This document shows positions 1,610-39,009 of a stretch of DNA of 39,009 bases, piece after piece. Each line of letters begins with the position of its first letter. The first letter of the stretch is position 1. This stretch comes from a virus (lineage: Duplodnaviria; Heunggongvirae; Uroviricota; Caudoviricetes): positions 1 through 39,009 of the IMG/VR virus record IMGVR_UViG_2540341091_000002; one strand, given 5' to 3'. Made by a program: the position numbers and the translations under genes. The notes beneath the pieces were generated by a model that did no database searches, was not told the DNA's origin, and was given only the letters and a program-made list of their open reading frames with translations.

Positions 1610-1781
1610 CAGTTTGCATATTTTGAACGCAATAAAATATGACAGTCCGCTTTGAGCGAGGAGCGGATATATGATGTTTAGAAAACGCGCGATTTGCAGT
1701 TAAGCAATCTAAGTTACTGATGTACTATACTGGAACTGCTGGCCAGTTTGTGTTGAACACCATCATTATCACAATAAGGAA

Positions 1782-3035
1782 ATGAAAGTCGAAATGAATA
1801 CTAAACTTTTGGCCTATTTAAACAATGAGTTACATGGAGTGTGGATAGATAGTGAAAATCGTAATATCCACATAATACTTAAATCAAGCCTTCCTATAAT
1901 TAAATCCGTCTGGTCAGGAGCACCTATCCACTTTTTGGTAGGTTTATCTACTAAAAATATACTAGTGATTGGGATGTTGATTGAAGATAATGTCGATAAT
2001 CCATTTTTACTAGCCTATCCACCAAGAGAGGCAGATGAAATTAAAGGGCTGGATTTGTTATTGTCAGGCGCTTATGATGGTATTCTATTATCATTTTTTG
2101 ACTCGCATACAATGCGTGTTATGGACCTGAAAATAAAAGTTTCGGAAAATTTACCGTGTGAATGTTTAAAAAAATTTTGTGCTAATTCATATTCTCTCAA
2201 TTCAGGATTTAGGGAAGGTAATGAAGCAATGGATGAATTCTGCAACAATGCTTTGACTGGTAACGAGAAAATAATTAGTCTGCCACTAAGTGTAATCGAT
2301 AAAAAATCTTACCTAGCAAGTGTTCATGAACCAAACGATACCGTATTAACATATGAATTTAGCGTCAGTGAAAACGGCTCTGAGGGATATGAGCAGGAAG
2401 CTCTTATATACCATGCTTTGCGGCAGGTCTTTTCACCGGAGGAAGTGTTTTTTTCTCCAGATATTATTGAGGGTAATAAAAAAAGAGAACTAGTTGATAT
2501 TCTTATTGTAGAAAATGACTATGTATTATCTATACAGTCTAAAGCATCATCTTTGATTGAAATGGGTTTAAAATCTCATGAAAAGCTTTGTAGCATGTAT
2601 AAGAAAAAAGCATTGCAAGGGATCGATCAGGTTAAAGGCGTTATCCCAATTCTAAATAATGATGTGGTTATTAATTATGACGGGAGGGAATGCTTAATAA
2701 AGCGCAGAAAGGGTATTTATCATTTAGTGATAATCTCAGATCTTGTTTTAGAGAAAGAAGGTGCTGAAAAGATTTATAACGAAATTAGCAACCTTAAAGA
2801 GTCAAAAGGGGCGAAAGTTTTAGTTATGAGCCTTGAAGGTCTTGTAAATTTTATAAGACTATCAAGATTAAATAAAAGAATGTTTTGGGCAATGCTGGAG
2901 ACTAAATACAAGTTCAGCATAAAAAACCGTACAATTTTAATTAGAGATATCGACTCTAGCCAAGAGAATAATCTACCATTACTTGCCACTGATCAATACC
3001 TATCACTTCTTCGAGGTACGGGAAAATTAAAATAA
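1782..3035 (+). CDS. Hypothetical AT-rich cargo protein; possible PD-(D/E)xK-like nuclease core (candidate defence or abortive-infection gene)
   Basis: 417-aa ORF with AAGGA ribosome-binding site upstream; composition is markedly AT-rich (roughly one-third G+C by eye, against about half in flanking phage genes); residues ~200-255 (EQEALIYHAL...ELVDILIVENDYVLSIQSK) fit an alpha-beta-beta-beta D...QxK pattern; no family recognised. Confidence 0.6.
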   Translation: MKVEMNTKLLAYLNNELHGVWIDSENRNIHIILKSSLPIIKSVWSGAPIHFLVGLSTKNILVIGMLIEDNVDNPFLLAYPPREADEIKGLDLLLSGAYDGILLSFFDSHTMRVMDLKIKVSENLPCECLKKFCANSYSLNSGFREGNEAMDEFCNNALTGNEKIISLPLSVIDKKSYLASVHEPNDTVLTYEFSVSENGSEGYEQEALIYHALRQVFSPEEVFFSPDIIEGNKKRELVDILIVENDYVLSIQSKASSLIEMGLKSHEKLCSMYKKKALQGIDQVKGVIPILNNDVVINYDGRECLIKRRKGIYHLVIISDLVLEKEGAEKIYNEISNLKESKGAKVLVMSLEGLVNFIRLSRLNKRMFWAMLETKYKFSIKNRTILIRDIDSSQENNLPLLATDQYLSLLRGTGKLK

Positions 3036-3220
3036 ATTGTATCAATGATACTGTTGCCACGTATCGAGACTGGCTTATGAACGGAAGGGTTTTCCAGCAG
3101 TTCAGCGACCGGAGCTGCACATCGATGCCGGATTGTGCCTGCAATTATGTACTTGGCTAAGAGGTGCTGCTGGCTCTGGATAGAATAACCCTAACGTCCA
3201 AAGAGCGCGCATTTTCATGT

Positions 3221-3261
3221 AAAAAAATAAATAGCTTGTCTGCTCTTGATACAGAGCAGAC
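3221..3261 (-). terminator. Rho-independent terminator ending the leftward early operon
   Basis: Perfect 9-bp inverted repeat gtctgctct/agagcagac with 6-nt loop (3238-3261); on the minus strand it is followed by a T-rich run (plus-strand aaaaaaataaata at 3221-3233). Confidence 0.5.
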
Positions 3262-3320
3262 AGTCAGATCTGTTTGGCTTGTGCCATAGATGTGCCAGCT
3301 CACATTTGAGCTAATGTTTG

Positions 3321-3515
3321 TTACTCAATTACTCCTGCAAACCTGTATATCTTACGTGATGCCCATTTATTTGGGCAGGATTTAATATCAGGATCTGGAA
3401 AATCAGGCCGATATTTCTGACCAGTCCTCCGGTTTACACTGTTCCAGCGAAGCACCGTCGATATTGAAACGCCACAGAATTCGGCGACTTGTTTTGTTGT
3501 CATTAAGTTGTTCAT
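3321..3515 (-). CDS. Excisionase-like helix-turn-helix DNA-binding protein (AlpA/TorI/Xis type), probable recombination directionality factor
   Basis: Start taken at internal Met (MNNLMTTKQVAEFCGVSISTVLRW...), which forms an ATGA overlap with the upstream gene stop; small HTH protein at the end of the operon near int. Confidence 0.6.
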   Translation of the reverse strand: MNNLMTTKQVAEFCGVSISTVLRWNSVNRRTGQKYRPDFPDPDIKSCPNKWASRKIYRFAGVIE

Positions 3516-3859
3516 TGTTGACCCTCCTGTGGTTGTGCAGTTGAAAGACTCATGCCCGCGCGTTGTTGCCAGACGACCCAGCCGAGAGCCATATCCCACG
3601 CCATGTACTCGTTATCACCGTTTTTTGCTCTCCGACGATCGACTGTTTTACCGAAACGCTTTTCCATAAATAATTCATAGGCTGCGCGTTCATCTGGCTC
3701 AACTTCCAGAGATGCCAGTGCAATCCGTGCCAGTTCTAAATCATCTTCAAGCTCAGCGCGAATCTCAGCGAATGCACTCTGTGTTAAGGCGAACTCAATG
3801 CTCTGCACTTTATTCCGTGCGCGCTCAAGCAGTGCATGGTAGTTAATTTCGGTTGTCAT
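3512..3859 (-). CDS. Hypothetical prophage early protein
   Basis: 115-aa ORF translationally coupled to neighbours on both sides; acidic helical sequence; no family recognised with confidence. Confidence 0.55.
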   Translation of the reverse strand: MTTEINYHALLERARNKVQSIEFALTQSAFAEIRAELEDDLELARIALASLEVEPDERAAYELFMEKRFGKTVDRRRAKNGDNEYMAWDMALGWVVWQQRAGMSLSTAQPQEGQQ

Positions 3860-4734
3860 ACCCCTACCTCTTCGAATTTCAATACCAATTGATCACCCCA
3901 GATTTCACATGACTCTGAACACGAGCCGGTATCGAATCGCCTGGCCTGTACCATCGCCTGATACAAATTTCTGTAGTCGCTGTTGGCAGACATTCTGGCA
4001 ATTCCGTCAAGCGTCAGGTGACCACGGTACATAACGTCTTTACCTGTTCTGCGATGACCATCCCTGACGTGTTTGCCTGTAACCAGCTCATTAAAAACTC
4101 GCATCAGACCAGGTTCGTCTTTACATGCAAGCCCCAGCTTTTGCGTTGACTTTTTGATGCAGAAAACACAGTTCCCGAGATGCTCCGGGATTTGCAAATC
4201 AAAAGGTTGTTTTCGCCACCACCGGATAACATCCGACTTATCAAAATCTGACAGTTCGGCAAGATACCGGACGCCCGATTTCGGTTTCAGCCTACGGGGT
4301 TCGTCTGCACGAATACCCAGCCATGTGATGTAATTACCTCGCCCGAAATGGTTATCGCAGTATTTCGTGAAAGGGATGAGTTTTAGCCTGTCAGTACAGA
4401 ACGCGCCGCCGATGTATGGCGTGCCGTACTTTTTAACCATGTCCATAAACGGTTTAAGTACCGGCATTCGCGTCTGAATATCCTTTGGCTCCCATTCTGT
4501 ATAACCATTTGGCTGCCCAAGCTCAGGATTGATATCGACCTGCAACACAGTTAGTGGTATGCCCCAGAACTTCACAACCTCCCGAATAAAGCGGTATGTC
4601 AGCGGATGTTCGCAACCGGTATCCATAAAGATGTAGCAGACGTTATTGCCAGCCTTTCTTTGTTCTTCCATCAGGTGAACAAGATATGCAGATGTTCTCC
4701 CGCCGGAAAAACTAACTACATGAGTTATGCACAT
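3856..4734 (-). CDS. Phosphoadenosine phosphosulfate (PAPS) reductase family protein, PP-loop ATP pyrophosphatase fold
   Basis: 292 aa; N-terminal VVSFSGGRTS PP-loop-like motif typical of the PAPS-reductase family; 10-bp overlap with upstream gene. Confidence 0.75.
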   Translation of the reverse strand: MCITHVVSFSGGRTSAYLVHLMEEQRKAGNNVCYIFMDTGCEHPLTYRFIREVVKFWGIPLTVLQVDINPELGQPNGYTEWEPKDIQTRMPVLKPFMDMVKKYGTPYIGGAFCTDRLKLIPFTKYCDNHFGRGNYITWLGIRADEPRRLKPKSGVRYLAELSDFDKSDVIRWWRKQPFDLQIPEHLGNCVFCIKKSTQKLGLACKDEPGLMRVFNELVTGKHVRDGHRRTGKDVMYRGHLTLDGIARMSANSDYRNLYQAMVQARRFDTGSCSESCEIWGDQLVLKFEEVGV

Positions 4735-35618: not shown

Positions 35619-36269
35619 ATGCATCGTATAGACACGAAAACTGCGCAGAAGGATAAGTTCGGCGCGGGTAAGAACGGTTTTACCCGTGGTAACCCCCAGA
35701 CCGGCACGCCTGCCACCGATCTGGATGATGACTACTTTGACATGTTGCAGGAGGAGCTTTGCAGCGTTGTGGAGGCGTCCGGTGCCAGCCTGGAGAAGGG
35801 GCGGCACGACCAGCTGCTTACCGCGCTTCGTGCGCTGCTGTTAAGCCGCAAGAATCCGTTTGGTGATATCAAATCGGATGGCACGGTGAAAACGGCTCTC
35901 GAAAACCTTGGTTTGGGAGAAGCGGCGAAAAGGGATGTAGGCACAGGAGAAAATCAGATACCGGATATGTCAGCCTGGAAAAGAAATCCGAGTTCTAATC
36001 GCTGGAGAAAATTGCCTGATGGAACCATCATTCAAATGGGAATATCAGCATCAGGGCCATTAGGCTCACCTGTAAATATCACCCTGCCGATATCTTTCAG
36101 CAATACCAATTATTGTGTTGTTGCATCGTACGATAATGCACGGTCAGGTGTGTCAACAATGGTTAGTTTTGCAGCATTACCTGTTTCACCATCGCAATTT
36201 TCCCTGATGTCATCTGTGACTGAGCAAGGAATAAATCCTTTTGCTTACTGGATTGCTTTTGGAGATTGA
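35619..36269 (+). CDS. Tail fibre protein (constant N-terminus fused to the variable C-terminal cassette currently in the expressed orientation)
   Basis: 216 aa; the crossover site lies within the codons for ENLGLGE; followed by a tail-fibre assembly gene. Confidence 0.75.
35896..35921. repeat. Left recombination site of the invertible tail-fibre segment (gix/pix-like, 26 bp, dyad-symmetric)
   Basis: ctctcgaaaacc-tt-ggtttgggagaa; half-sites match in 9 of 12 positions; the reverse complement shares a 14-bp perfect core with the site at 37701. Confidence 0.6.
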
Positions 36270-36272
36270 TAA

Positions 36273-36692
36273 ATGGACAGATACTTCTATTCACAAAAAG
36301 AAAATGGTTTTTTTACCGATTTAAATAAAGCACCTTCAGATGCTGTTGAGATAACCACGGATGAATGGCTATCACTACTGGATGGTCAGGATAATGGCAT
36401 GAAAATAGTCAGCAATCAGGAGGGATATCCGGTTTTGACAGAGCAACCACCTTTATCAAAAGAAAACCTTATTGCATTGGCAGAGTTGAAAAAAGGAAAA
36501 CTTATTAATGAAGCCAACGAGCACATGAACAGCAGGCAATGGCCTGGTAAAGCGGCTATTGGTCGTCTGAAAGGTGAGGAACTGGCGCAATATAATTTGT
36601 GGCTGGATTATCTGGACGCACTGGAGCTGGTCGATACTTCCAGTGCGCCAGATATTGAATGGCCTACGCCTCCGGCAGTTCAGGCCAGATGA
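36273..36692 (+). CDS. Tail fibre assembly protein (Tfa), expressed orientation
   Basis: 139 aa; C-terminus DIEWPTPPAVQAR resembles Tfa C-termini; directly follows the tail fibre gene. Confidence 0.8.
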   Translation: MDRYFYSQKENGFFTDLNKAPSDAVEITTDEWLSLLDGQDNGMKIVSNQEGYPVLTEQPPLSKENLIALAELKKGKLINEANEHMNSRQWPGKAAIGRLKGEELAQYNLWLDYLDALELVDTSSAPDIEWPTPPAVQAR

Positions 36693-37257
36693 TATCCGGC
36701 GCGGTGCTGGTATCTGTTACCGTCACCGCGTCAATGTAATCCAGCACGGCGTTAAGTCGGGTTGTTTCTGCCTGCGTCAGTTTCCGTCCGGCCTGCAATT
36801 TCAGTTGAATCAGACTAATGGAAGCCATTGCAGTATCAATCAGTGACTGACGTTGTGCTTCTGCCGCGTCTACTGCGGCGCTATGCTGTGCCTCGGTATC
36901 CGTCACCCATTTCTCACCATCCCATTTATCGTATGGCGTTAACGGTGAAAGCGTGACATAACCGTCTTTGATGGCACCGATATAATCCACTGTAACAGCT
37001 GCGCCATTTTCTGTTGAGTAAACAGTCTCATTGCGATGGTCTTCTTCATGGCTCCATCCCTTACCCGTAAATACTGCCACTTTTCCCGGAATGTTTTCGC
37101 CAGGGTCAATACCAGTGGAACAGGCGGGCATACTTACGCCAGTATTAATATATTCATCAGACCAGCCCGTATACTCAGATGTTTCAGCATCATAATAAAA
37201 ACAACGCATATCGCCCGGCACTGTAGCCAGCCCATTTTCATCAAAAACAGGTTTCAT
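36664..37257 (-). CDS. Tail fibre assembly protein (alternative Tfa, inverted orientation)
   Basis: 197 aa; C-terminus DIIWPELPEA parallels the plus-strand Tfa; convergent 3' ends overlap, as in Mu U/U' and e14 tfaP/tfaE. Confidence 0.8.
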   Translation of the reverse strand: MKPVFDENGLATVPGDMRCFYYDAETSEYTGWSDEYINTGVSMPACSTGIDPGENIPGKVAVFTGKGWSHEEDHRNETVYSTENGAAVTVDYIGAIKDGYVTLSPLTPYDKWDGEKWVTDTEAQHSAAVDAAEAQRQSLIDTAMASISLIQLKLQAGRKLTQAETTRLNAVLDYIDAVTVTDTSTAPDIIWPELPEA

Positions 37258-37726
37258 TATTTAGCCCTCACCAGAAAGTTAAATGCAATATTTCGCGGTC
37301 TGACTGCAACAAAATTCACACCATCACCCACAGAGTTACTGGTGAAATTAAATCGTGAAAATCCTGGCTGATTTCCGGCGATGCCATCATGAAAGTTAAT
37401 TGCGTGTCCCGCACCTTCGCCTATATTCCCGGCAAACTGAGAAAAGTTTGTAGCGTTCTGCCAGCTTAATAATTCGCGACCACCGTCTACACCTCGCCCG
37501 TCATCCCAGACACGAATGAAATCACCGCGTGCGTCAGGTAATGCCAGCGCCGGAAACACTTTCGCCAGCACAGGGTAATCAGTGGCAGAAAATTTCGCCC
37601 CGTTGAACTTCAAAAACACCATACTGGACCAGCTGTCGATTACAGTATTTGGCATTGCAGCGGACGGCCAGAAGAACGGAACGCCAATAGCTGGAGAACC
37701 TTCTCCCAAACCAACGTTTATGAAAA
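37257..37726 (-). CDS. Silent alternative tail-fibre C-terminal cassette (no own start; expressed only after inversion). Boundaries approximate
   Basis: Open frame continues from the right crossover site (encoding GLGEG, matching LGLGE in the expressed gene); the track ORF's apparent start MSGNIGANP lies inside the IS2 end and is artefactual. Confidence 0.6.
37701..37726. repeat. Right recombination site of the invertible tail-fibre segment (inverted copy of the 35896 site)
   Basis: ttctcccaaaccaacgtttatgaaaa; first 14 bp identical to the reverse complement of the left site, 19 of 26 overall. Confidence 0.6.
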
Positions 37727-37780
37727 TGCAGAAATAACGAGCAAATGGCATCATTCCTGCTTTTGTCAGTGGATTTGCCC

Positions 37781-38686
37781 CTATATTTCCAGACATCTGT
37801 TATCACTTAACCCATTACAAGCCCGCTGCCGCAGATATTCCCGTGGCGAGCGATAACCCAGCGCACTATGCGGATGCCATTCGTTATAATGCTCGAACGC
37901 CTCTGCAAGGTTCTTTGCTGCCGTTAACCCGTCTGGTTTGGGCATGATACTGATGTAGTCACGCTTTATCGTTTTCACGAAGCTCTCTGCTATTCCGTTA
38001 CTCTCCGGACTCCGCACCGCCGTGTTCTTCGGTTCAAGTCCCAACATCCGGGCGAACTGGCGTGTTTCATTAGCCCGGTAGCATGAACCATTATCCGTCA
38101 GCCACTCCACTGGAGACGACGGAAGATCGTTGCCGAAGCGGCGTTCCACCGCTCCCAGCATGACGTCCTGTACTGTTTCACTGTTGAAGCCGCCGGTAGT
38201 GACCGCCCAGTGCAGTGCCTCACGATCACAGCAGTCCAGCGCGAACGTGACACGCAGTCTCTCTCCGTTATCACAGCAGAACTCGAACCCGTCAGAGCAC
38301 CATCGCTGATTGCTTTCTTTCACGGCCACTCTGCCTGTATGTGCCCGTTTCGATGGCGGTACAGCAGGTTTTCGCTCAAGCAACAGCGCATTCTGGCGCA
38401 TGATCCGGTAAACACGTTTGGCATTGATCGCAGGCATACCATCAAGTTCTGCCTGTCTGCGAAGCAGCGCCCATACCCGACGATAACCATACGTGGGCAG
38501 CTCTCCGATAACATGGTGTATACGGAGAAGCACATCCGTATCATCAGTGTGACGACTGCGGCGGCCATCCATCCAGTCATCGGTTCGTCTGAGAATGACG
38601 TGCAACTGCGCACGCGACACCCGGAGACAACGGCTGACTAAGCTTACTCCCCATCCCCGGGCAATAAGGGCGCGTGCGCTATCCAC
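37781..38686 (-). CDS. insD: IS2 transposase OrfB (InsD; DDE integrase-like catalytic domain)
   Basis: 301 aa beginning [16 protein letters not shown]; recognised as IS2 InsD. Confidence 0.9.
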
Positions 38687-39009
38687 TTTTTTGCCCGTCC
38701 ATATTCAACGGCTTCTTTGAGGAGTTCATTTTCCATCGTTTTCTTGCCGAGCAGGCGCTGGAGTTCTTTAATCTGCTTCATGGCGGCAGCAAGTTCAGAG
38801 GCAGGAACAACCTGTTCTCCGGCGGCGACAGCAGTAAGACTTCCTTCCTGGTATTGCTTACGCCAGAGAAATAACTGGCTGGCTGCTACACCATGTTGCC
38901 GGGCAACGAGGGAGACCGTCATCCCCGGTTCAAAGCTCTGCTGAACAATTGCGATCTTTTCCTGTGTGGTACGCCGTCTGCGTTTCTCCGGCCCTAAGAC
39001 ATCAATCAT
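38644..39009 (-). CDS. insC: IS2 OrfA (InsC; HTH DNA-binding component of the transposase)
   Basis: 121 aa beginning [33 protein letters not shown]; start codon at the last three bases of the window. Confidence 0.9.

Follow-up and report, generated by a model that had tools for sequence, protein, structure and literature searches.

The window analysed here, a 39,009-nt stretch of viral DNA (IMG/VR record IMGVR_UViG_2540341091_000002), is the left 39 kb of a prophage. Its content includes Mu-like genes for tail and baseplate, a gene of the YmfQ family and a tail-fibre segment that is invertible; no tRNA gene was found in it. The displaced native 5' end of prfC lies at 91-155, with a 14-bp attL core, ATTATTTCTCACCC, at 142-155, and the same ATTATTTCTCACCC recurs 48 nt into a reconstituted prfC past the right end of the prophage. 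The attL core and the prfC 5' end identify the window as one prfC-integrated, e14-like prophage. The native start of prfC has been left behind at attL, while a replacement 5' end supplied by the phage is found at attR (approximately positions 1742-1790, reverse strand, of L011, the corresponding locus of E. coli APEC O78). The stretch from the invertase gene pin to attR contains protease and DinI genes, both of which are thereby assigned to the prophage. Integration in prfC follows the strategy that e14 uses at icd, but here at the 5' end of the gene, and, unlike e14, the prophage is full-length.

A pair of 20-nt inverted repeats was found at 35903-35922 and 37700-37719; read in their sequence context, these resolve into two 26-bp hix-like crossover sites. 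The left one, pix-like and lying within the tail-fibre gene, occupies 35896-35921 (CTCTCGAAAACC-TT-GGTTTGGGAGAA), and the right one 37701-37726 (TTCTCCCAAACC-AA-CGTTTATGAAAA). The cores of both are the repeats given for the P segment of e14, TTGGTTTGGGAGAAGG and CCTTCTCCCAAACCAA (PMC12529663). The expressed tail-fibre gene (35619-36269, plus strand, an open reading frame of 216 aa with a Pfam Gp53-like_C match) is made up of a constant N-terminal part and a gp53-like C-terminal part, joined at the left crossover site, and is followed by the tail-fibre assembly gene of the expressed variant (36273-36692, plus strand, 139 aa, Pfam Caudo_TAP). On the opposite strand lie the assembly gene of the silent alternative set (36664-37257, minus strand, 197 aa, also Caudo_TAP), whose exact protein is present in relatives, and an open reading frame for the silent alternative fibre C-terminus, which has no start of its own (37257-37712, minus strand) and is labelled in RefSeq, in relatives, as "phage tail protein, missing N-terminus". 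At locus L013 (NZ_CP126931.1, positions 1426-2172) the constant part joined to the alternative C-terminus makes a 248-aa tail-fibre protein, WP_137544414.1, to which RefSeq gives the name "integrase"; this looks like an annotation error.

The locus thus has two inverted 26-bp sites at the ends of a segment in which alternative fibre C-termini and their assembly genes oppose each other, as in the Fis/enhancer-dependent switches of the Gin/Cin/Pin/Hin type. A close known counterpart, with the same crossover repeats, is the P segment of e14 in K-12 with its invertase PinE (ymfQ-stfP-tfaP / tfaE-stfE-pinE). The two segments share the arrangement of two opposed fibre C-termini, each with an assembly gene, as well as an invertase gene beginning about 54 bp outside the right site, and they are similar in length (1,805 bp here vs. 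1,797 bp in e14). The G segment of Mu with Gin, the C segment of P1 with Cin and the Hin system of Salmonella likewise have 26-bp hix-like sites with a central AA/TT, an invertase gene that adjoins the segment, and an enhancer in the 5' coding part of that gene.

Immediately outside the right crossover site, after a gap of exactly 43 bp (37727-37769), the window runs into an insertion sequence, IS2, in minus orientation, of which the first 1,240 of 1,331 bp are included (37770-39009, 99.6-100% identity to annotated IS2 and InsD records). Its right inverted repeat, IRR, occupies 41 bp (37770-37810, terminus TGGATTTGCCCCTATATTTCC...). Both transposase frames are on the minus strand: orfB (InsD, 37781-38686, 301 aa, with HTH_21, rve and rve_3 domains) and orfA (InsC, 38644-39009, 121 aa, HTH_Tnp_1), the ATG of the latter being the final three bases of the window. 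The minus strand also has the A6G frameshift motif, AAAAAAG (38692-38686).

A search with the 197-aa assembly protein led to a single locus that matches the window in gene order, IS2 included, namely that of E. coli APEC O78 (CP004009.1, L011); the final 8,346 bases of the window are identical to it, with 0 mismatches. CP004009.1 therefore serves to follow the element past position 39009, as the initial annotation had suggested doing in search of its far end, a target-site duplication and an invertase gene, and all three were seen there, the last as a truncated gene. The IS2 continues for 91 further bases, ending ...GGGGGCCAGTCTA, for a total of 1,331 bp, and is followed by GTCAG and then by GGAGATCTACC-ATG of pin. 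GTCAG at 37765-37769 is the other copy of the target duplication. The termini in APEC O78, TGGATTTGCCCC... and TAGACTGGCCCCC..., start with 5'-TGG at IRR and 5'-TAG at the left repeat, IRL; IRR faces the invertible segment and IRL faces pin. IS2 is defined by a length of 1,331 bp and by terminal inverted repeats, 41 and 42 bp long, that match imperfectly (PMC3299598), and the element agrees with known IS2 in its near-identity, its length and termini, its orfA and orfB with the A6G motif and the DDE (rve) domain, and its 5-bp duplication. A chance resemblance is not a concern, since 1,240 nt match a known element near-perfectly and the junction is sharp. The inserted element is complete and apparently intact.

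IS2 is multicopy in E. coli, and the junction is absent from other complete genomes, so that one might suspect an assembly artefact in which a repeat has been collapsed or misplaced. The precise junctions, the exact length of 1,331 bp, the perfect 5-bp direct duplication, and the empty site in relatives, where GTCAG is present as a single copy, are together the signature of a real transposition, and we consider an artefact hardly credible. Both junctions are absent from all 5,426 complete E. coli genomes searched, which marks the insertion as strain-specific, and exact-junction searches of the genome_contigs, viral_contigs and metagenome_contigs collections likewise gave no match.

What the element interrupted can be read from the closest IS-free relatives among those 5,426 genomes, O121 WL1277 and UTAK-14 (99.1% identity). 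Both follow the window collinearly as far as ...CTTTTGTCAG; directly after it comes GGAGATCTACC-ATG, the start of a gene of 184 codons that RefSeq names pinE. In the native state, 54 bp of leader separate the crossover site from the pin ATG; alignment with UTAK-14 shows that 37727-37769 (plus strand) are the first 43 of these, now severed from pin. The IS2 landed 11 bp 5' of the ATG and just 5' of the GGAG Shine-Dalgarno sequence, that is, between the leader adjoining the crossover site and the Shine-Dalgarno. The initial annotation was thus correct in placing IS2 43 bp outside the right site, in expecting the invertase gene immediately outside that site, where UTAK-14 has pinE exactly, and in supposing a displacement of more than 1.3 kb, the actual shift being 1,336 bp (1,331 bp of IS2 and the 5-bp duplication). 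Its further suggestion that the invertase might be disrupted by the insertion does not hold, the coding sequence being untouched by the element. No other invertase gene was found in the window.

The pin open reading frame behind the IS2 has 118 codons, as against 184 in full-length pinE. It is identical to full-length pinE over the first 286 nt and shows six scattered differences between nt 287 and 341, after which homology is wholly gone. The remnant is thus a mosaic (L011 3785-4141, minus strand; L013 3588-4107), as if nt 287-341 had been taken from another invertase gene. In the Pfam matches the Resolvase domain stops at position 124 of a 145-position profile and HTH_7 is absent, while the protein of the full-length relative has both Resolvase and HTH_7; most of helix E and the whole helix-turn-helix DNA-binding domain are missing. 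Serine invertases require the helix E of about 35 residues and the C-terminal DNA-binding domain (PMC4513852), and with both affected the product of the remnant cannot be an invertase. The catalytic domain, helix E and C-terminal helix-turn-helix of a complete adjacent serine invertase are accordingly not all present, which makes the locus a derived member of the Gin/Cin/Pin/Hin family that lacks an invertase. In APEC E19025, a close relative, the same reading frame is annotated in RefSeq as "recombinase family protein, missing C-terminus", with "S24 family peptidase, frameshifted, missing N-terminus" directly behind it; the paired annotations indicate an internal deletion that fused pin to an S24-peptidase gene. 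In this, as in the IS2 in the leader, the locus is unlike the e14 P segment, pin being a 118-codon remnant fused to an S24-peptidase fragment. A second defective pin allele, of 105 codons and diverging after approximately codon 53-66, was also seen in other relatives (L012 7417-7734; L009 5160-5477), which shows that the invertase gene has been lost more than once in this prophage family.

The identical truncated allele, with the IS2 target empty, is present at six further loci (L003-L007 and L010) and in 18 complete E. coli genomes, and the IS2 is found in only one of the truncated-allele genomes. The truncation is therefore the older event, and the IS2 struck an existing pseudogene. From the pin ATG to +1,297 the arm has one variable site across seven loci, which implies that the truncation happened once; the whole right arm is nearly invariant, too little varied for SNP density in the pin remnant relative to its neighbours to speak for or against selection on an enhancer.

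These findings bear on the idea that it was the IS2 which inactivated the invertase and so locked the fibre segment. The position of the element is what such an account would call for: an IS2 between the leader and the Shine-Dalgarno and ATG must sever pin from any promoter located at the crossover site or close to it. The native pin promoter was not located by consensus scans, and the separation is argued from position. The truncation of pin is, however, independent of the IS2, and carriers of the truncated allele are found with the segment in both orientations, which argues against locking; we therefore regard this account as very unlikely. In supposing that the invertase is non-functional the initial annotation was right as to the defect and wrong as to its cause, which is the older 3' truncation after nt 341 rather than the insertion.

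The reading that we prefer, with a probability of roughly 85%, is that the IS2 sits in the leader of an already dead pin gene, next to an orphan fibre switch, in a prfC-integrated prophage of the e14 family carried by APEC O78 or an identical strain. An older deletion removed pin after nt 341 and fused the remnant to the S24-peptidase fragment; later, IS2 transposed into the leader, 54 bp long, that separates pin from the right crossover site. The insertion would then have had no effect on the supply of invertase, and would count as a neutral event, specific to this strain, in a region undergoing decay. The fibre switch itself may be regarded as an orphan, with both 26-bp sites intact and an enhancer presumably retained, by homology, and with a segment that would flip only when the invertase of another prophage acts in trans. 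The insertion is real and strain-specific, and probably of little consequence, a case of ordinary prophage decay built from known elements; it lies in an already published genome.

A different possibility is that the insertion brought a promoter of its own. Just inside IRL, IS2 carries PIRL, a weak promoter directed inward; it also has an outward -35 in IRR that makes the junction promoter and, together with a resident -10, fusion promoters (PMC3299598, PMC9330008). Such fusion promoters are known at ampC (Jaurin and Normark 1983) and at acrEF, where the same element, again with a 5-bp duplication, was inserted only a few bp ahead of the gene. An outward promoter here might drive the pin remnant or, on the other side, the silent fibre and assembly genes. 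In the activating cases at ampC and acrEF, however, the -35 of IRR faces the gene and pairs with a resident -10, whereas here it is IRL that faces the pseudogene, and the documented mechanism is therefore inapplicable to pin. A relaxed scan did give a weak outward match across IRL toward pin, TTAAGA-17-GATACT, agreeing at 8 of 12 positions, which is at chance level, and the standard promoter scan found no outward IS2 promoter on the IRL side; the pin remnant would in any case be incapable of making an active invertase. This sigma-70-like match lies at approximately L011 4187-4215 and ends 46 bp before the pin ATG. The proposal that pin had come under an outward IS2 promoter can thus be set aside as unlikely, given the facing of IRL, the location of the outward -35 in IRR and the pseudogene status of pin.

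On the other side of the element, the documented -35 in IRR needs a -10 in the flank, and the flank at that position (C-TGACAA) offers TGACAA, by inspection a poor -10. There is also a reading frame of 179 codons (37257-37796, minus strand) that starts at an ATG within IRR at 37796, overlaps the end of orfB and, crossing the 43-bp leader and then the crossover site without a change of frame, extends into the silent fibre C-terminus. In principle this fusion could be expressed by read-through of the transposase transcript, which speaks for an effect on the silent fibre genes, but no gene call is on record for its product with either of two alternative starts. Taking both sides of the element together, we think an outward IS2 promoter very unlikely.

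If the segment has lost its own invertase, its orientation in relatives becomes of interest. Among carriers of the truncated allele it lies as in the window at L003, L010 and L011, and in the opposite orientation at L004-L007 and L013, so that both orientations are found among relatives with the same truncated pin; this evidence is drawn from relatives that, apart from L011, are free of the IS2. The clearest comparison is between L003 and L004 (GCA_051022455.1 and GCA_039548595.1, both drafts), between which no mismatch remains in the first 9,530 nt after an in-silico flip, a span taking in the baseplate and protease genes, the segment, and the remnants of pin and of the S24 gene. Their sole difference over that length is that the 1,805-bp segment is flipped, and both have the truncated pin, from which it follows that the segment was inverted after the loss of the cis invertase. 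The suggestion that the insertion might hold the segment in its present orientation finds no support in this pair or in the mixed orientations of the truncated-allele carriers.

The simplest explanation of both orientations beside a dead cis gene is that invertase is supplied in trans, and the segment is probably flipped by invertases encoded elsewhere, as far as these sequence comparisons can tell. There is precedent in K-12, where PinQ, encoded by prophage Qin, can invert the P segment of e14, likewise a case of a segment flipped by the invertase of another prophage; this was shown with overexpressed PinQ, and deletion of pinE left the P segment locked in spite of a chromosomal pinQ (PMC12529663). 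Flipping in trans at native levels of expression is thus not guaranteed. A chimeric query for pinE-like 3' halves gave a second place in 9 of the 18 complete genomes with the truncated allele, a count that is ambiguous.

Unlike the Gin, Cin and Hin systems, the present one has no functional cis invertase, and its presumed enhancer lies about 1.4 kb from the nearest site. In Mu, the Fis sites fall inside the gin reading frame (PMC3378877). The first 341 nt of pin are retained in the remnant, and a Fis-dependent enhancer may well have been kept in this 5' part of the gene. Its position there is presumed from homology with gin and hin. Measured in this way, the distance between the enhancer and the right site would grow from about 90 bp to about 1.4 kb with the IS2 in place. 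With Hin, a site-enhancer spacer of 868 bp, against a native 99 bp, still allows recombination, with more processive exchange and multiple subunit rotations (PMC3798978). Displacement of the enhancer is thus the one plausible mechanical effect of the IS2, in which control limiting exchange to a single round would be relaxed, by analogy with Hin. A fuller version, in which the pin remnant serves as the cis Fis enhancer of an orphan switch run by borrowed invertases and the IS2 shift measurably alters the rate or fidelity of flipping, is a speculation that we judge unlikely; were it true, the enhancer at about 1.4 kb in APEC O78 would lead to more processive exchange.

The order of events found here suggests that the host-range switch of a prophage can decay stepwise, with truncation of the invertase first and an insertion sequence in its leader next, and that what appears to be a knock-out by an insertion sequence can be secondary to an older lesion outside the window. 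The presence of the switch in both orientations after its own invertase was lost fits recent evidence for the cross-action of Pin-family invertases between the segments of different prophages.

Other insertion sequences were seen close by in the same prophage family. O121 WL1277 has an IS3-family element in the assembly gene within the segment (L002 4991-6204), the SDH protease gene at locus L010 is interrupted by an insertion sequence (2861-4089), and strain N9 carries IS1A near the same region; the right arm of the prophage seems to be either a frequent target for such elements or poorly selected.
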